Source: a virus | DNA: 38,341 bases | Virus genome (UHGV): UHGV-0133281 | Strand: one strand, 5' to 3' | Part shown: positions 4,830-24,013 of the stretch, piece by piece | Numbering within the stretch: the first letter of the stretch is position 1 | How the letters are laid out: the number at the start of each line of letters is the position of its first letter | The notes under the pieces: generated by a model | Databases searched by the model: none | What the model saw: the letters and a program-made list of their open reading frames with translations, nothing else | What the model was told of the DNA's origin: nothing | Program-made: the position numbers and the translations under genes

Positions 4830-4895
4830 AGACCCACTTCGACGGCCATCAAAGTAGGTCAGTTACAAATATCAAATTCAAGGAGAGTGTACCAC

Positions 4896-5195
4896 ATGAA
4901 TAGAAAAATTGAAAGAATGATTATTGAACTTGAAAAAGAATGTAAGGCACAGAATGTTGAACTTCTTCTATGTGCTACAAATTTTGAAACAGGCCAAGGA
5001 AGTACTGCGTTTTGTGGTTCAGTTATCGGGTTAGCTATACTCTTGCAAAAACTTGTAGGTGATCTAAAAGAGCAATTAAATATAAGCGAACCTTGTGATT
5101 GTCCAGAATGCGTAGCAGAAAAATCCGAAGATGCTGCAAATGAAAAATCTATGGATGAACTACTAACTGCATTTTTACGAGGTGAACTGCAATGA
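4896..5195 (+). CDS. Hypothetical protein (CDCPEC cysteine motif)
   Basis: ATG at 4896 sits 8 nt after AGGAGAG. The listed GTG at 4887 overlaps the RBS. Confidence 0.45.
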   Translation: MNRKIERMIIELEKECKAQNVELLLCATNFETGQGSTAFCGSVIGLAILLQKLVGDLKEQLNISEPCDCPECVAEKSEDAANEKSMDELLTAFLRGELQ

Positions 5196-5518: not shown

Positions 5519-6535
5519 ATGAGTAACGATTTAACACAAATGACACAACGATCTTTAGATGAACAAGTCATCGGAAATTTAAATAGATTGCAAGAGCAGG
5601 GATTAGAAATGCCGCCAGGCTATAGTCCACAGAATGCATTGAAAAGTGCTTTCTTTGAACTAACTAACAATTCAGGAGGGAACCTTCTTCAGTTGGCAGC
5701 TAACAACCCAGAAACTAAAACATCTATTTCTAATGCCTTACTAGATATGGTCATCCAAGGATTATCACCTGCGAAGAAACAATGCTATTTCATTAAATAT
5801 GGAAATAAAGTTCAGCTTATGCGCTCATATTTTGGAACCATGGCTGTGTTAGATCGAGTAACAGGAGGGGCAGATATCACGCCTGTTGTAGTCAGAGAAG
5901 GCGATGTATTTGAAATTGCTATGGACGGACCAGACTTAGTCGTGGCTAAACATGAAACATCCTTCGAAAACCTAGACAACGACATCAAGGCTGCTTATGT
6001 GGTTATTAAGCTAGCAAATGGTAAAGAAGTAACAACGGTCATGACTAAAAAACAAATTGATAAGTCATGGAGTAAAGCAAAAACAAAAAATGTTCAAAAC
6101 GATTTCCCAGAAGAAATGGCAAAAAGAACTGTCATCAATCGAGCTGCTAAATACTTAATCAATACTAGTAACGATAATGATTTATTTGTGCAAGCTGCTA
6201 AAGACACACTCGAAAATGAATTTGAACGAAAAGATGTGACACCAGAGCGAAAAGAGCAAGCTGTGGTACTTGAAGAAAAACTATTTTCCAACAATATAAA
6301 AGCTGTTGATCAAGAAAACGAGAATGAACAAATTACACGTGTAGCTGATGTACCAGGGCAACCCGATATTGAACAAGCCAAACCAATTGAAAAAGAAGAT
6401 TTAACGAAAGTGGCGGACCAAATTTTAGAAGAACCAGTTCAGGAAACTTTGGATGTAATGGCTGGTTATGAAACCAATCAGAAAGAGAGTGAATCTGATG
6501 TCTCAACGATTGAAGAAGACGATTATCCTTTCTGA
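5519..6535 (+). CDS. recT: RecT-family single-strand annealing protein
   Basis: RecT-like core (GNKVQLMRSYFGTMAV...). Start chosen at the ATG 7 nt after AGGAG. Followed by a nuclease gene, the classic RecT/exonuclease pair. Confidence 0.75.
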   Translation: MSNDLTQMTQRSLDEQVIGNLNRLQEQGLEMPPGYSPQNALKSAFFELTNNSGGNLLQLAANNPETKTSISNALLDMVIQGLSPAKKQCYFIKYGNKVQLMRSYFGTMAVLDRVTGGADITPVVVREGDVFEIAMDGPDLVVAKHETSFENLDNDIKAAYVVIKLANGKEVTTVMTKKQIDKSWSKAKTKNVQNDFPEEMAKRTVINRAAKYLINTSNDNDLFVQAAKDTLENEFERKDVTPERKEQAVVLEEKLFSNNIKAVDQENENEQITRVADVPGQPDIEQAKPIEKEDLTKVADQILEEPVQETLDVMAGYETNQKESESDVSTIEEDDYPF

Positions 6536-8094: not shown

Positions 8095-8934
8095 ATGCAG
8101 TCAGCATCAGATGGATTTTCGAAAATGATTAAAACGTTGCTTTATATCACACCTGATCCATGTCCTGAATGTGGAGAAAATCTTTATGCTTGGCGTGCAA
8201 AAAACAAAGATGGGTCCGATAGATGTCCGCCAACTTGCATGGAATGTGGCTATAAAGCACGCAAAAAAGCAGAAGACCTTGAAACAGAGAAAATGTTTAA
8301 CGATAGTTTGAAAGCCAGAGCGATTAATTACCTGAAATATAGCTCGCTTTATACCGACAAAAATTTAATTAATTGTCGTTTTAAAACTTACAAAACAGTA
8401 GACACAGAAACTAAGCTTGCTTTTGAAATTGCCAATCGAGCCACGACTGAAATTCTTTTGAATAAACCAATTCATATGATTCTTTCAGGCAAAAGTGGTG
8501 TTGGGAAAAGTCATTTAGCTATGTCAACGGCTTGGGAAGTGTTGGAGAAATCAAACTATGATAAACGCTGCTTATTTATTAGCTATGCGGAACTCTTAGA
8601 ACAGCTAAAATTTGCGATGAAAGATGAACAAGCCAGAAAGACAATAACAGGAACCTTAATGGCAGAGATAAAAAGCGCTGATTTAGTTGTTTTAGACGAC
8701 TTAGGGGCCGAGTTAGGTGTTAAAGGGAATGACAGTACCAACTTCAATAATGACACCTTAAACCGCATTGTAGAGGCTCGGCAGAATAAAGCAACAGTGT
8801 TTACTACCAATTTAACTGGTAAAGAAATGAGTCAAGCCTATGGTGAGAGAATCCTTTCTCGCATCATGAGTAATTCACAAGGATTCGTGATGAAAATTGA
8901 GGGGACATCAGACAAACGAGTAGCAGGCATCTAA
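8095..8934 (+). CDS. DnaC/IstB-like AAA+ helicase loader with an N-terminal zinc ribbon
   Basis: Walker A GKSGVGKSHLA, Walker B LVVLDDLG, N-terminal CPECG...CMECG. Confidence 0.8.
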   Translation: MQSASDGFSKMIKTLLYITPDPCPECGENLYAWRAKNKDGSDRCPPTCMECGYKARKKAEDLETEKMFNDSLKARAINYLKYSSLYTDKNLINCRFKTYKTVDTETKLAFEIANRATTEILLNKPIHMILSGKSGVGKSHLAMSTAWEVLEKSNYDKRCLFISYAELLEQLKFAMKDEQARKTITGTLMAEIKSADLVVLDDLGAELGVKGNDSTNFNNDTLNRIVEARQNKATVFTTNLTGKEMSQAYGERILSRIMSNSQGFVMKIEGTSDKRVAGI

Positions 8935-19765: not shown

Positions 19766-20911
19766 ATGACAATCAATTTAAAAGGAATGGTCAATTACCA
19801 AGAAAAGCGTAAAGCTTTTATTGCATCTGTAAAAAATGGTGATCCACAGGAAAAACAAAATGAATTATATGAAGTATCTATGAATGCTCTAGCAGAAGAC
19901 ATGGTAGCAGAGGCTAAAAAAGAAGCTCGTATGGAAGCAGAAGAATTTATCAATGCTTCAAAAATGGATAAAGGCATTACGCCCAAAGAAGTTAAATTCT
20001 TTAACGCGGTCACTGAAACAGGCTGGAAAGATGAAGAACTACTTCCTGAAACAACAGTGGATGAAATTTTTAATGATTTAACAAGAGAACGTCCATTATT
20101 AAAAGAATTAGGATTAAAATATACAGGATTACGATTGAAAATCTTAAAATCTGATCCAAAAGGTGCCATTGTTTGGGGTAAAATTTTCGGCGAAATTAAA
20201 GGTCAGTTAGATGCAACCTTCAGCGAAGACGATGCAAAACAAAGCAAAGCAACAGCATTTGTTGTATTACCAAACGATCTATTAGAATATGGTCCTGTTT
20301 GGATTAAACGTTATGTAACTACTCAAATTAAAGAGGCATTTGCTGTTGGCTTCGAAGATGCTTTCCTAAATGGCGATGGAAACGATAAGCCTATTGGTTT
20401 AACTCGTGACTTAGCAAAGGGAGCTACTTCAAACGGTGTGACTACTTATCCAGAGAAAGAAGCAGCAGGAACTTTAACTTTTGCCGATGAAAAAACAGCG
20501 ATTAAAGAATTAAAAGAAATGCGTAAATACCATTCTGTTAAAGAAAATGGCAAACGTATTTCTGTCGCTGGTAAAGTAGTTATTGTTGCGAGCCCAGATG
20601 AAGCTTTGGATATTGAAACAGAGTTTACTTCTCGTAATGCAATGGGGGACTGGGTTACGAAATTACCGTTTGGATTGCGGATTGTGGAATCTGATTTCCA
20701 AAAATCTGGAAAAGTTACCACTTTTGTTAGTGGTCGTTACGATGCATTTGCTGCAGGAGCATTAGTGATTAAAGAATACGATCAAACATTAGCTTTAGAA
20801 GATTGTCGGTTATTCACTGCAAAACAATTTGCGTTTGGTAAAGCACAAGACAACAAGGTTGCAGCTGTATGGACATTATCAATTAATGGAGACCCAGAGA
20901 CGGGGAAGTAG
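19766..20911 (+). CDS. Major capsid protein (HK97 fold). A -1-frame C-terminal extension is open to 20973.
   Basis: 381 aa following the protease with an N-terminal delta-like region. Extension frame ..GEVAIPVIEKVTSTTDGAVVNLK*. Confidence 0.85.
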   Translation: MTINLKGMVNYQEKRKAFIASVKNGDPQEKQNELYEVSMNALAEDMVAEAKKEARMEAEEFINASKMDKGITPKEVKFFNAVTETGWKDEELLPETTVDEIFNDLTRERPLLKELGLKYTGLRLKILKSDPKGAIVWGKIFGEIKGQLDATFSEDDAKQSKATAFVVLPNDLLEYGPVWIKRYVTTQIKEAFAVGFEDAFLNGDGNDKPIGLTRDLAKGATSNGVTTYPEKEAAGTLTFADEKTAIKELKEMRKYHSVKENGKRISVAGKVVIVASPDEALDIETEFTSRNAMGDWVTKLPFGLRIVESDFQKSGKVTTFVSGRYDAFAAGALVIKEYDQTLALEDCRLFTAKQFAFGKAQDNKVAAVWTLSINGDPETGK

Positions 20912-20988
20912 CAATCCCCGTGATTGAAAAAGTCACGTCAACAACAGACGGGGCTGTTGTAAATCTGAAATAACAGGGGAGGTATTCA

Positions 20989-21294
20989 ATGACTAATGAA
21001 CAAGCATTAGAGTTAGCCAATCTGAACCTAGAAAAATTTAAGAAGCGGATGAAAATTTTTGGAACGTCGGAAGATGAATCGTTAACGGAAATTTTAGCCG
21101 CTTCTTTTTTGCGCCTTGATTCTTTGATCAATCCAGTTAAACCAGAAAGTGATTTAACCTTCATAGAACTTGTATTTGAGCGCAGCCGATATGCCTATAA
21201 CGATTCATTAGAGTTTTTCGAAACAAATTTTCAGCCAGATATATTAGCGCAGTCTTTAAAATATGCGGAGGTGTTCAACGATGATACACCCTAA
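20989..21294 (+). CDS. Head-tail connector (gp6-like)
   Basis: 101 aa. Conserved position after the capsid gene. Confidence 0.6.
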   Translation: MTNEQALELANLNLEKFKKRMKIFGTSEDESLTEILAASFLRLDSLINPVKPESDLTFIELVFERSRYAYNDSLEFFETNFQPDILAQSLKYAEVFNDDTP

Positions 21295-21655
21295 TTATAA
21301 AAAGCCTAAAATTAATAGTGGTAGTTTGAAAACACGTGTAGAATTTTGGGGATTTGTTCCAAATGATGGACCAGAGCCAGGAGAAGAAAAAAACGAAAAG
21401 CTATATGAATGCTTTTCTTTAGCTTACAATCCATCAATGAAAGACATGGAAATATTGAACGCAAAAGGAACTAAAGAGGGGCTGACAATTAAAATCCGTG
21501 ATCCACACCAAGACTATATCCCTAGCAACAAACATAAAGTTGTTATCGACGACTATAGAGCTTTACCAGTGGGCAAAGAATGGGAAATCGTAGATGTTTC
21601 ACCAGATTTTGAAGATAATCGTTTTATCAAGATTGTTCTAGGGATAACGTCATGA
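21263..21655 (+). CDS. Head closure protein
   Basis: 130 aa. Position. Confidence 0.55.
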   Translation: MRRCSTMIHPNYKKPKINSGSLKTRVEFWGFVPNDGPEPGEEKNEKLYECFSLAYNPSMKDMEILNAKGTKEGLTIKIRDPHQDYIPSNKHKVVIDDYRALPVGKEWEIVDVSPDFEDNRFIKIVLGITS

Positions 21656-22044
21656 GCGAAGTGACAGGGTTAGAAGAAATTCTCAAAAATATGGAAGATA
21701 AACTAGGTCAAGCACGAGTAAATAGAATTTCAAACAAAGCTTTAAAAAAACAAGGCGAAAGAAACAAGCAGACTGTAAAAAAATACATGGCTAGTTATAT
21801 AGATTCAGGAAAAACGCATGACTTAGTTATAAGTAGTGGTGTGAAAAGTAATCCAAAACGAGTTGAGACTGGCTGGGCTTCAAAGGAACGTGCGCCTATC
21901 GTCCATTTAAATGAGTTCGGCTATACGCGCTATGGTACTTATGTACGACCTCGTGGAATGGGAAAACTACAAGCTGCAGCTGATGAAATTCAAGCGAAAG
22001 CATTTGGAGAGATGAAGCCGGATATGGAGGAATTAGCTAAATGA
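21652..22044 (+). CDS. HK97 gp10-like head-tail joining protein
   Basis: 130 aa. Position and size. Confidence 0.55.
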   Translation: MSEVTGLEEILKNMEDKLGQARVNRISNKALKKQGERNKQTVKKYMASYIDSGKTHDLVISSGVKSNPKRVETGWASKERAPIVHLNEFGYTRYGTYVRPRGMGKLQAAADEIQAKAFGEMKPDMEELAK

Positions 22045-22436
22045 AAGATATGATGATGGAAGTTTACAATGCCTTGATTGAAAATGAAACAATTAAAGAG
22101 CTTGTGACACCTCAAAGAATTAAATTTTATGAAGTACCAGAAACTTTGGATACTACCAAGCCTTTCATTATCATTGATAACTTTTTTGGTCCACAAACCA
22201 ACGCTTATTTTGCCAACAATAAAGCTTTATCAATTAGGTTTAATTATCAAATCAACGTTGAGAGCATGGATAGAATGACAACTAAGCAAATTTCTAAAGC
22301 AGTTGAAGAAACAATGAAACAAATTGGTTTTGGTCGCTTAGATGGTGGCTTAGATCAGTACTTTAACGAAACAAAACGTTTTGTAGATGCAAGACGTTAC
22401 AGAAAAAATACACAAATTCACGACACCGACTATTAA
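22041..22436 (+). CDS. Tail completion or tail terminator protein
   Basis: 131 aa. Position before the major tail protein. Confidence 0.5.
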   Translation: MKDMMMEVYNALIENETIKELVTPQRIKFYEVPETLDTTKPFIIIDNFFGPQTNAYFANNKALSIRFNYQINVESMDRMTTKQISKAVEETMKQIGFGRLDGGLDQYFNETKRFVDARRYRKNTQIHDTDY

Positions 22437-22468
22437 GTTGGTGTCTATTTTTTAGGAGGAAAAAATTT

Positions 22469-23062
22469 ATGCAAACATACGGATTTAGCAGAATCACTAT
22501 TCAACAATTGGACAATGAATTAAAGCCAGTCGCTGGTAAGAAACATGTCATTGATGGCAAGCCAAAAGAAGGGGCCGCAGCAAGCTTTGAAATTACAGGA
22601 CTAACCAAAGAACCGTCAAAAGTTTTCGGTTCAAACATTGCATATTACGTTGCACGTAAAGGGCACGGAGATATTGCAGCAAACTTAGGTATCTTAGATG
22701 TACCATCAGCCATTGAACATGAAATGTTAGGGCATAAAAAAGCTAGCGAGGAAAGCAAAGTTTATCATATTGGCGAGGATACAGAGCCACCTTACTACGC
22801 AGTATTAATCGAATCAGAAGATTTATATGGTGAAAAAATTGGCTTCGGCATGTATGCAGGCACATTCTCATTAGATGGTGTCAAAGGCGAAACATTAAAT
22901 GATGACGACTTTACGCCAGAGCCTGGCGAATATGTTTATTCTGCTGTTTCTCGTCAAATTAACGGTAAAAAAGTTACTGTCGGTTTTGCAGATAATTCAG
23001 AAGCTCTAGCAGAATTGACAACAGAATTATTTGGTGAAGAAACACCAGCGCCGGAAAAGTAG
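22469..23062 (+). CDS. Major tail protein. A -1-frame C-terminal extension is open to 23124.
   Basis: 197 aa. Position. Extension frame ..GKVASPTVGAVTPTTDGANIELS*. Confidence 0.75.
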   Translation: MQTYGFSRITIQQLDNELKPVAGKKHVIDGKPKEGAAASFEITGLTKEPSKVFGSNIAYYVARKGHGDIAANLGILDVPSAIEHEMLGHKKASEESKVYHIGEDTEPPYYAVLIESEDLYGEKIGFGMYAGTFSLDGVKGETLNDDDFTPEPGEYVYSAVSRQINGKKVTVGFADNSEALAELTTELFGEETPAPEK

Positions 23063-23135
23063 CAAGCCCCACAGTGGGAGCTGTTACTCCCACCACAGAT
23101 GGGGCCAATATTGAATTAAGTTAGGAGGACAAGAA

Positions 23136-23609
23136 ATGTCGTTTATTCCACCAGAAAAATTTAGACTTTATAAAAAAGGTGAAACTAGTCCTGTTGCAGA
23201 AGGTATTTCGCCTTTAGCTATTACAGGAATTACCGCAAACACAGATGTTTTAGCTGGTGACTTTACTGTCACAGGTGTTGCCACCGTTGACGGTGAAGAA
23301 AAAGAATCTGATCATGTTGATGTACCAGCATTTAAAACATTACCTATTGCAGTAACAGGAATTACCTTGGATAAGACTGAATTAGCTTTAAAAGTTGGTG
23401 AAACAGCAACGTTAACACCTACAATCATGCCAGAAAACGCAACAAACAAAGCGTATAGATTCAGTTCTGAAGATGCAGCGATTGGAACGGTAACGCCAGT
23501 GCAAGGAAAAGTAACAGGCGTTTCGGAAGGTATTACAAAACTTGTTGGCACAACTGAAGACGGTAATTTTACAGCAGAATGTACTTTGACTGTATCAGCA
23601 GCAGAATAA
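23136..23609 (+). CDS. Ig-like (Big_2) domain tail protein
   Basis: Big_2-like repeats (ITGITLDKTELALKVGETATLT...GTVTPV...ITKLVGTTEDG). Confidence 0.65.
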   Translation: MSFIPPEKFRLYKKGETSPVAEGISPLAITGITANTDVLAGDFTVTGVATVDGEEKESDHVDVPAFKTLPIAVTGITLDKTELALKVGETATLTPTIMPENATNKAYRFSSEDAAIGTVTPVQGKVTGVSEGITKLVGTTEDGNFTAECTLTVSAAE

Positions 23610-23632
23610 AAATTTATTGATTAAGGACGGCT

Positions 23633-23662
23633 TTAGTTAGTCGTCCTTTTTTTGGAGGTTAA
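23633..23662 (+). terminator. Intra-operon rho-independent terminator or attenuator
   Basis: AGGACG-(12 nt loop)-CGTCCT followed by TTTTTTT. Confidence 0.6.
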
Positions 23663-23665
23663 AAA

Positions 23666-24013
23666 ATGGAACGTAAAATTGAACTAACTTTACGCATTGA
23701 TGGCGAAGAAAAAACTTTTACACAGGACTTTGTGCCGTTTTCTAAGCGTACAGACTATATAAAAAAAGAAAATTCACTTAGAGAAGAAAAAACAAGCGAA
23801 GGATTAGAACCAACAGCTGACGAGTATTTAGAAATGCAAATTCAATTCGTCGCCGATTTATTCGATGAAAAGGAACTTACTAAAGAAGCAATTCTTAACG
23901 GTATTGATGCTTTAGACATTGATAAAATATGGGAAATTATCAGCTATCGAGTTCTTGGTCTATCTAAGACAGATGTGGAAGAGTCAAAAAAGGAAAAGGC
24001 GGAGGAAATCTAA
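23666..24013 (+). CDS. Tail assembly chaperone (gpG-like)
   Basis: 115 aa, acidic, immediately upstream of the TMP. The slippery A AAA AAG lies near its end. Confidence 0.75.
   Translation: MERKIELTLRIDGEEKTFTQDFVPFSKRTDYIKKENSLREEKTSEGLEPTADEYLEMQIQFVADLFDEKELTKEAILNGIDALDIDKIWEIISYRVLGLSKTDVEESKKEKAEEI

Follow-up and report, generated by a model that had tools for sequence, protein, structure and literature searches.

In the virus genome UHGV-0133281, a stretch of 38,341 nucleotides that was analysed in full and is called the window here, the genes for the major capsid protein and the tail-tube (major tail) protein are each followed, in the −1 reading frame, by a short peptide of the same kind, the tag. 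The gene downstream of the tail-tube gene codes for a further protein, here termed the decoration protein, and by sequence alignment the tag and the N-terminal domain (N-domain) of this protein together correspond to one FN3 domain. We consider it probable that these elements form a three-part system in which translational recoding puts half an FN3 domain on some of the capsid and tube subunits and the decoration protein docks there by fold complementation. The window is of Enterococcus prophage type; it shares 97–98% identity with an IME_EF3 fragment, and its close protein relatives are labelled E. faecalis.

The capsid open reading frame (ORF) matches Pfam Phage_capsid (E 3e-14) and NCBIfam major_cap_HK97 and has portal and Clp protease genes upstream, and the tail-tube ORF matches Pfam Phage_TTP_1, TIGR01603 maj_tail_phi13 and phrog_88. 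The calculated masses of the 0-frame products are 42.3 kDa for the capsid and 21.4 kDa for the tube protein. An initial annotation had noticed that the −1 frame stays open past the capsid stop codon, and its coordinates were confirmed (Table 1); the C-terminal part of the product of this frame is ..GEVAIPVIEKVTSTTDGAVVNLK. The nucleotide contexts at the two gene ends, described there as nearly identical, have AAGTAGCAA.CCCC in common, and the likeness reported for the extension peptides corresponds to 13 identical positions between the two 23-aa shifted-frame peptides. We searched the six-frame translation of the window with a hidden Markov model (HMM) built from 11 tags of other phages, the two tags of the window being excluded. 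The profile matched at 23038-23124 (48.0 bits, E 8e-14) and at 20887-20973 (41.8 bits, E 7.5e-12) and at no other site; as background, the third-ranked window match reached 5.5 bits and the best match among 30 shuffled windows 9.0 bits. The two tags are real and not due to chance, as the initial annotation had argued from the twin cassette. The predicted junction peptides are ..PETGK/VAIPVIEK or ..PETG/EVAIPVIEK for the capsid, with VTSTTDGAVVNLK as a further tag peptide, and ..PAPEK/VASPTVGAVTPTTDGANIELS for the tail.

Compared by eye, the tag resembles strands A–B and the N-domain strands C–G of an FN3 domain. AlphaFold2 (AF2) modelling of the tail tag with the decoration protein gave a mean predicted local distance difference test (pLDDT) score of 93.6 with the tag in two strands, and the capsid tag with the N-domain reached a pLDDT of 92.1 and a predicted template modelling score (pTM) of 0.81. 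The tag strands, residues 7–14 and 17–23, were modelled at pLDDT 83–96 with no homologous alignment row over the tag. When the single-domain model was compared with the PDB by Foldseek, essentially all of the top 50 matches were FN3 domains, with full-length alignments and template modelling (TM) scores of 0.5–0.68; the top matches include NCAM FN3-1, fibronectin FN10, monobodies and tenascin-derived binders. The composite of tag and N-domain is thus predicted to have the seven-strand FN3 topology. A PDB profile search with nine such composites ranked human fibronectin FN3 first and spanned the junction, with an E value of 0.063 that is not significant alone.

Relatives in which the domain is not split support the same assignment. 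A first, word-indexed search had found no unsplit homologues, a result that was overturned by an exhaustive HMMER search. In the latter 38 of the 42 family representatives begin at profile position 24–34, just after the tag. The unsplit relatives P0087, P0083 and P0080 gave internal matches extending from profile position 3–5 to 92–93; in P0085 the internal match likewise begins at position 3–5 and its best stretch ends at 60. The window composite aligns with residues 575–739 of P0087 in one high-scoring segment pair (38% identity, E 2e-26), which passes through the junction between tag and partner (SPTVGAVTPTTDGANIELSMSFIPPEKFRLYKK against SPTLTELTPTKDGFTVKLTGSN-EDSTFRIYDK) and continues into Big_2. 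The capsid composite aligns through the junction with P0083 (E 5e-10). On these alignments, tag and N-domain are homologous to one contiguous FN3 domain.

The decoration protein is composed of the N-domain (~65–70 aa, ~23136-23345) followed by a Big_2 Ig-like domain (~23346-23606; Pfam Big_2 at residues 72–150). The region 23136-23606 matches phrog_341, annotated as ‘major tail protein’, with E 7.7e-47 over profile positions 3–150 of 154, and an NCBIfam search of the decoration protein matched nothing. The initial annotation had recognised both recoding sites and had missed this partner gene (23136-23609), which is the key to function. Among decoration homologues the N-domain starts 0–8 residues from the initiator Met and carries varying payloads, namely one Big_2, two Big_2 or PF20622. 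Two E. faecalis prophage proteins of 190–191 aa (P0016 and P0028), with N-domains 61% and 54% identical to that of the window, have PF20622, not Big_2, which suggests that payloads are swapped while the anchor stays constant. In P0056 the split N-domain is followed by two intact homologous FN3 repeats. The metagenomic decoration homologues P0012 and P0040 have a tag-like C-terminal end (..EPENVQVETTEDSADVSAE); partner proteins with a tag of their own could bind head-to-tail or self-complement. By tblastn, N-domain homologues were found in 604 cultured-phage records (486 Staphylococcus, 114 Enterococcus), of which a handful were inspected for tags, phi12 alone among those from Staphylococcus.

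Aligning the 3’ ends of capsid and tail genes of related phages had been proposed in the initial annotation as a check, and the shifted frame and the tag proved to be conserved: more than 90 related loci have a tag of ~21 aa downstream of their capsid and tail-tube genes, in another frame than the gene, and this frame is open throughout. Both tags are retained in ~46 close IMG/VR relatives, in which the capsid tag occurs in two diverged versions, GEVAIPVIEKVTPTTDGAVVNLK and NKVNTPVVNKINPTTDGATIDLK. In Enterococcus phage EFC-1 the match to the tail region of the window is confined to the ~100-nt cassette, and its capsid and tube proteins have no detectable similarity to those of the window (BLASTP E 0.21 and 11). 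The EFC-1 tail gene ends CCG GGA AAG TAG and leads into GKVDSPSVGSVTPTVDGASIELS, the capsid gene ends GCG GGG GAG TAA and leads into GGVTSPVVGKVTPTTNGATIELT. An equivalent arrangement on capsid and tube genes is found in phiEf11 and in Brochothrix phage BtpYZU02. The cassette is also present in prophages of Oceanobacillus, Cytobacillus, Siminovitchia, Atopostipes and another Enterococcus species; in the first four genera the decoration gene follows the capsid gene and all three parts are kept. Two tags were found in 38 of 41 further diverged viral contigs and one tag in the other 3, invariably at the 3’ ends of capsid-sized (275–403 aa) and tube-sized (147–217 aa) ORFs. By these comparisons the tag cassette is a conserved module, portable from one type of capsid or tube gene to another, unrelated one.

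All tag-bearing genomes have a decoration gene, located behind either the tube or the capsid gene. Listeria phage B025, with a capsid gene ~65% identical in nucleotide sequence to that of the window, has no open shifted frame, tag or decoration gene, and tags are likewise missing from seven loci (L047-L053) that have no N-domain and whose tube protein, of a different kind, carries Big_2 as an in-frame fusion. This distribution bears on the possibility that recoding is real and the tag acts alone, as a contact arm of capsomers or tube rings or as an assembly signal, with the Ig-like protein binding in some other way or only to the tail. The tag is short and resembles an amphipathic strand, the partner has been annotated as ‘major’ or ‘minor tail protein’, and the complex of the two is so far a prediction. 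However, tags and N-domain co-occur in all examined loci and where there is no N-domain there are no tags; moreover the tag completes an alignment to one contiguous domain, and the partner starts exactly at strand C and would by itself be an incomplete sandwich. We therefore consider an independent role of the tag unlikely.

We compared 14 diverse tags with respect to their mode of evolution. In the tag frame the mean pairwise divergence at codon positions 1, 2 and 3 was 0.36, 0.29 and 0.62, and the proportions of synonymous (pS) and nonsynonymous (pN) differences were 0.64 and 0.34; the remaining two frames are without such a bias. This indicates that the tag evolves as coding sequence and is selected as protein. 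The routes by which the tag is reached differ. Across the family the −1 heptamers are G_GGA_AAG, G_GGG_AAG, G_GAA_AAG, G_GGG_GAG/GAA, G_GGA_AAA, A_AAA_AAA, A_ACA_AAG and C_CCA_AAA, and nearly all of them directly precede a UAA or UAG stop, which makes GUA or AUA the first codon read after the shift. A sister subfamily has the +1 sites CCC_UAA or CCC_AGC in capsid and tube genes (L144, L145, the L065 capsid, S. aureus phi12), with tags resembling P-Q-N-V-E-V-x-A-N-S-K-S-x-T-I-S-A-E. In the tail gene of the L060 locus (8250-8440), a prophage in an Atopostipes metagenome-assembled genome, ..METV-TGA is followed in the same frame by the tag TEEPEVLNIEPTVDGADVGLE, which would be reached by UGA readthrough, not frameshifting. 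Tail tags are fused in frame in phiEf11 ORF15 (L055 4476-5069), L142 (7380-7970), L113 and L065 (7865-8518), and every tube subunit would therefore carry the tag. In the phiEf11 tail gene one extra base in a G/A run, as compared with EFC-1, puts the tag in frame, and this tag has unusual substitutions (TPTFDGASTELS); the in-frame tail fusions may be either real constitutive fusions or sequencing errors. The same indifference to a −1, +1 or in-frame route has been described for Ig-like recoded extensions (PMC5009743), and it fits poorly with a non-coding element. Given the conservation of the cassette, the varied routes and the codon periodicity, programmed recoding at these gene ends is well supported. 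For the phage of the window, actual slippage and its efficiency are inferred.

Both heptamers of the window are one A/G transition away from the canonical G_GGA_AAG, which occurs at the equivalent position in close relatives, EFC-1 and BtpYZU02. After a −1 shift at the capsid site the next codon would be GUA (Val, 20908-20910), and relatives with the same architecture have G_GGA_AAG, G_GGG_GAG or A_AAA_AAA followed by UAR at this position. In most members of the cassette family the heptamer runs directly into the 0-frame stop; an adjoining stop should give a pause with an empty A site (‘shifty stops’). Near-identical prophages of the L008 group vary at the tail heptamer (locus 5918-5927), with G_GGA_AAG in 3 loci and G_GAA_AAG in most; the variation alters the 0-frame residue (Gly/Glu), not the tag, and represents a natural experiment on heptamer efficiency. 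Downstream of the sites stable RNA structures are predicted, with z-scores ranging from −2.9 to −4.3. The capsid region has a minimum free energy (MFE) of −15.9 kcal/mol (z −2.9) and the tail region one of −22.1 kcal/mol (z −3.4), and in each case 1 of 200 shuffles was equally stable. For the capsid an alternative long-range clamp, pairing CCCCGU 20916-20921 with ACGGGG 20948-20953, is also predicted. RNAalifold retained a 3-bp CCC/GGG stem as the sole stem of 16 cassettes, and these columns can pair in all 16; in a hand-specified two-helix register 64% of the cells pair, versus 34–50% in slid registers. An Rfam search of 20700-23700 gave no match.

The same proteins would result if RNA polymerase, and not the ribosome, slipped on the G/A run and added one base. 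Homopolymers are present in some cassettes (A7 in the phiEf11 capsid gene, G5 in many Bacillaceae prophages), and the phiEf11 tail tag is in frame through its one extra base. The runs in the window are, however, just G4 and A4, and those known to sustain productive transcriptional slippage are far longer. The adjoining stop, the invariant GUA and a hairpin 6–7 nt downstream are features of a ribosomal shift, and CCC_UAA or CCC_AGC of the sister subfamily is a classical +1 ribosomal site, so that transcriptional slippage appears improbable.

Published protein data are available for two relatives. The major head protein of phiEf11, ORF10, was seen in virions as two bands of ~41 and ~38 kDa, and a −1 shift at AAAAAAA that adds 21 aa was put forward by the authors as an explanation (PMC5221750). 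The processed capsid protein of S. aureus phi12 gives bands of 29.5 and 32.6 kDa, the larger one left unexplained, and a main electrospray ionization mass of 30,374 Da (PMC8569155). We calculated 30,375 Da for the short phi12 form and 32,310 Da for the +1 product ending in ..GPLP-AKPQKVNVTAKAKSAVISAE; for the predicted long form of the phi12 tube protein the calculated mass is 25,205 Da. In the phi12 genome (L147, NC_004616) TTA CCC AGC TAA forms the end of the capsid gene (2680-2860) as well as of the tail gene (4840-5020), the tag lying in the +1 frame, and gp38, the decoration homologue, was seen as an abundant free band of about 16–20 kDa, labelled ‘minor tail protein’ (PMC8569155). The capsid doublets of phiEf11 and phi12 fit the size expected from tag addition. 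The initial annotation had suggested programmed frameshifting with long and short forms of both capsid and tail proteins, and this is strongly supported on comparative grounds by the conservation of the cassette, its coding evolution, the alternative routes taken in some genomes and these doublets.

We propose that at the last sense codons of the capsid (G_GGG_AAG before UAG) and tube (G_GAA_AAG before UAG) genes a fraction of the ribosomes slips back by one base, aided by the adjoining stop and probably also by the downstream hairpin. The slipped ribosomes would read GUA and about 20 more codons, adding the tag, with the consensus V-x-x-P-x-V-x-x-V-T-P-T-T-D-G-A-x-I-x-L, to a subset of subunits. 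The tag would provide strands A and B, and the product of 23136-23609 strands C–G and then Big_2. By fold complementation in trans the tag would complete the partial N-domain, and thereby the same Ig-like protein would be held, by non-covalent contacts, on the capsid as well as the tail tube, with its copy number set by the efficiency of recoding. Binding of tag and N-domain in trans is likewise inferred. The link is probably non-covalent, with no isopeptide locking, because the long capsid forms of relatives are larger by 2–3 kDa, not 16 kDa, on SDS gels. Recoded C-terminal extensions of HK97-fold capsid proteins (T7/T3 10B) and the C-terminal Ig-like domains of the tube proteins lambda gpV, SPP1 gp17.1* and T5 pb6 are exposed (PMC5009743, PMC8718954), and by analogy C-terminal display of the tag can be expected to be possible. 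As proposed for other phage Ig-like domains, the Big_2 domain probably serves in weak adhesion to cell-surface carbohydrate. In the window (23122-23129 and 20971-20985) as in most loci the stop codon of the tag coincides in part with the Shine-Dalgarno sequence of the following gene or lies directly next to it (TAG GAGGA, TAA GGAGGG, TAA CAGGGGAGG), and frameshifting ribosomes would therefore terminate on the ribosome binding site (RBS) of that gene. Where this is the decoration gene, its translation could be coupled to tag production.

Several observations weigh against the proposed three-part system. In the AF2 models tag and partner are fused as a single chain, which shows compatibility of fold and not a complex in trans. 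A Pfam scan of tag plus N-domain gave no significant match to fn3 or another family, the best match of the composite being the RGI_lyase FN3-like domain at positions 34–80 of 86 (E 0.04). Tag similarity is barely higher within genomes than between them (0.58 versus 0.52, from samples that are not independent). The heptamers of the window do not conform to the canonical X_XXY_YYZ: at each of them one tRNA re-pairs perfectly and the other with a G.U-type mismatch, Lys-tRNA having to re-pair on GAA at G_GGG_AAG and Glu-tRNA on GGA at G_GAA_AAG. Covariation in the hairpins is weak, with 18 of 500 shuffles scoring at least as high, and is confounded with Pro and Gly codons. Since the stems coincide with these codons and covariation is weak, an RNA stimulator is plausible rather than established; of the downstream structure suggested by the initial annotation, stable predicted hairpins were recovered at both sites, with little covariation to back them. 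All protein-level data come from relatives of the phage of the window. Mass spectrometry of phiEf11 gave no extension peptides, and the authors labelled the frameshift idea speculative (PMC5221750). The cryo-electron microscopy paper on the phi12 capsid mentions no decoration density (PMC8569155), which is weak evidence because sub-stoichiometric, flexibly tethered domains would average out.

Docking in trans also has to be weighed against a fusion in cis, in which a second recoding event would join the tail tag to the partner, giving a tube-FN3-Big_2 protein comparable to SPP1 gp17.1* or A118 Tsh-L and leaving the capsid tag an orphan. The partner ORF lies in the tag frame with a single stop between them in EFC-1, phiEf11, BtpYZU02, L058 and L060. 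Yet the frames differ in L059, L063 and L064, and 5 of 9 in frame is not far from chance. In the window a second frameshift into the next ORF was ruled out, as tag and partner ATG (23136) lie in different frames and 23115-23124 contains no slippery site. Each partner gene is equipped with a strong RBS and an ATG of its own, tags that do not adjoin the partner gene are equally conserved, and phi12 gp38 is seen as a free 16-kDa band; a fusion in cis is therefore very improbable. It is hardly credible that nothing is translated and that the open frame is incidental to an RNA or DNA element (attenuator, RBS-masking hairpin or recombination scar), as the stable predicted hairpins and the overlap of tag stop and RBS might suggest, because in the tag frame alone the third codon position diverges twice as much as the first two, several genomes have the tag in frame with the structural gene, four different recoding routes lead to it, the peptide is homologous to strands A–B of intact domains, Rfam gave no match, and capsid doublets occur in phiEf11 and phi12.

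The proposed docking by fold complementation can be set beside known systems. A member of the same cassette family, phiEf11 ORF10 has a slippery run abutting UAG, a 21-aa extension (IEAPKVESVIPTTDGASIVLS) and a downstream stem-loop, and its two virion bands are ~3 kDa apart; unlike the window it has the heptamer A_AAA_AAA, and its capsid protein is apparently of another type, judged by annotation and length (342 aa, separate scaffolding gene). The phiEf11 paper treats the case as isolated and mentions neither a tag on the tail protein nor a link to ORF16 (PMC5221750). In SPP1, 3’ recoding of the tube gene (gp17.1/gp17.1*) puts FN3 on ~1 in 4 subunits, where it is dispensable and thought to bind cell-wall carbohydrate (PMC8718954). 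There a whole FN3 domain is added in cis via a +1 shift, whereas in the window the extension holds strands A–B alone, the remaining strands and Big_2 are encoded by a gene of their own, and the capsid gene has the tag as well. In Lactobacillus phage A2 (gp5A/gp5B) and in T3/T7 (10A/10B) the major head protein occurs in two forms owing to a −1 shift close to the 3’ end, as does the major tail protein in A2, and the extensions are displayed on the outside (PMC5009743). The extensions of A2 and T3 are long and hold a complete Ig-like domain, whereas that of the window has 21–22 aa and two strands only. The A2 heptamer is C_CCA_AAA, and neither A2 nor T3/T7 is known to have a split domain or separate partner protein. 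With the class of Ig-like domains appended by recoding, the window family shares the position at the 3’ end of a capsid or tube gene and the interchangeable −1, +1 or in-frame access.

The initial annotation had drawn a parallel to Listeria phages such as PSA, which holds as a concept in that capsid and tail genes are both recoded at the 3’ end, but not for the shift sites or the content of the extensions. In PSA, A118 and A500 the +1 shift of Cps and Tsh is one of Pro-tRNA on CCC adjoining a stop codon or pseudoknot. The tag frame of the window is −1 with no CCC at the shift site; L144, L145 and phi12, in contrast, use CCC_UAA or CCC_AGC. On translation, Cps of the Listeria phages proved to be extended by a HeH/SAP-like sequence, A118 Tsh by a complete Big_2 domain and PSA Tsh by an acidic tail; unlike the window, PSA/A118 have no shared tag and no split domain. 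Identity with the PSA/A118 cassettes is thus ruled out by the translated 3’ ends. Brochothrix NF5 gp6/gp6.1 was rejected as the same system, since its long extension is of a different kind. The heptamer G_GGA_AAG of many cassette members is that of lambda G/GT, where Lys-tRNA slips from AAG to AAA; context and function differ, the G/GT product being an assembly chaperone absent from virions. Chaperone-usher pili and SpyTag/SpyCatcher resemble the proposal in that a strand-deficient Ig-like sandwich is completed by another polypeptide and in the short portable tag. In contrast to pili, two N-terminal FN3 strands and not one C-terminal strand would be supplied, with the tag dosed via recoding. 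SpyTag/SpyCatcher forms a covalent isopeptide bond, of which there is no sign here (long capsid forms +2–3 kDa, phi12 gp38 free).

The window contains further features around the cassettes, whose coordinates are given in Table 1. The tail assembly chaperone gene (23666..24013, Pfam Phage_TAC_19) has a canonical A_AAA_AAG at 23986-23992, and its −1 frame is open to ~24216, shortly upstream of the tape-measure gene (24235..). It represents the customary chaperone frameshift of G/GT type and gives the structural module a third recoding site. Terminator-like hairpins with T-runs flank the pair of tail-tube and decoration genes, one at 22422-22445 and one behind the decoration gene; annotated terminators also lie downstream of the tsh genes in Listeria phages A118 and PSA.

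Table 1. Coordinates of the capsid and tail cassettes, the decoration gene and associated elements in the window
Feature	Position	Strand	Description
Major capsid protein gene	19766..20911	+	381 aa, HK97-type; 0-frame end ..NGDPETGK + TAG 20909-20911
Capsid −1 frame	20887 (after TAA 20884-20886) to TAA 20971-20973	+	reads WRPRDGEVAIPVIEKVTSTTDGAVVNLK
Capsid shift site G_GGG_AAG	20902-20908 (with stop, 20902..20911)	+	adjoins 0-frame TAG 20909-20911; context ACG GGG AAG UAG
Capsid tag, −1 frame	20902..20973	+	G(E/K)VAIPVIEKVTSTTDGAVVNLK, stop TAA 20971-20973; predicted FN3 strands A, B
Capsid downstream RNA structure (predicted)	20916..20960	+	hairpins 20919-20937, 20941-20960
Tail-tube (major tail) protein gene	22469..23062	+	197 aa; 0-frame end ..TPAPEK + TAG
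Tail shift site G_GAA_AAG	23053-23059 (with stop, 23053..23062)	+	adjoins TAG 23060-23062; context CCG GAA AAG UAG
Tail tag, −1 frame	23053..23124	+	GKVASPTVGAVTPTTDGANIELS, stop TAG 23122-23124
Tail stem-loop (predicted)	23066..23105	+	outer GCCCC/GGGGC, inner GUGGGAG/CUCCCAC; starts 6 nt past heptamer
Decoration (‘catcher’) protein gene	23136..23609	+	157 aa; RBS GGAGGA 23124-23129
Terminator-like hairpin	23623..23648	+	10-bp stem, then T-run; end of tail-tube and decoration gene pair

That major capsid and tail genes are recoded at their 3’ ends is already known from Firmicutes phages, often with Ig-like additions (SPP1, A2, T3/T7, PSA, A118/A500, NF5), and the capsid-gene cassette of phiEf11 has been described once before (PMC5221750). 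In the accessible literature, a scope under which subscription-only papers are not excluded, we found no description of a tag shared by capsid and tube, of the split-FN3 identity or of the pairing with phrog_341. We lean, by a little, towards a wider reading as a natural ‘tag-and-catcher’ of Enterococcus, Staphylococcus (phi12-like Triavirus, Sa2int), Brochothrix and Bacillaceae phages, in which a dosed half-FN3 would be placed on two unrelated lattices and a free protein would snap on and bring interchangeable payloads; catchers ending in a tag would allow chains. If true, this would be the first described virus to attach a decoration protein by split-domain complementation, and it would offer a peptide handle for phage display and a natural 20-residue docking peptide for therapeutic enterococcal and staphylococcal phages. 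The reading unites the short recoded extensions, the ‘major’ and ‘minor tail protein’ genes of unassigned role and the unexplained capsid doublets of phiEf11 and phi12. The system appears to be widespread, and current annotation pipelines miss the tags entirely. It would show translational recoding setting the stoichiometry of a decoration protein, and fold complementation, if confirmed, would represent a new viral route to add or exchange surface domains while leaving the lattice proteins untouched.

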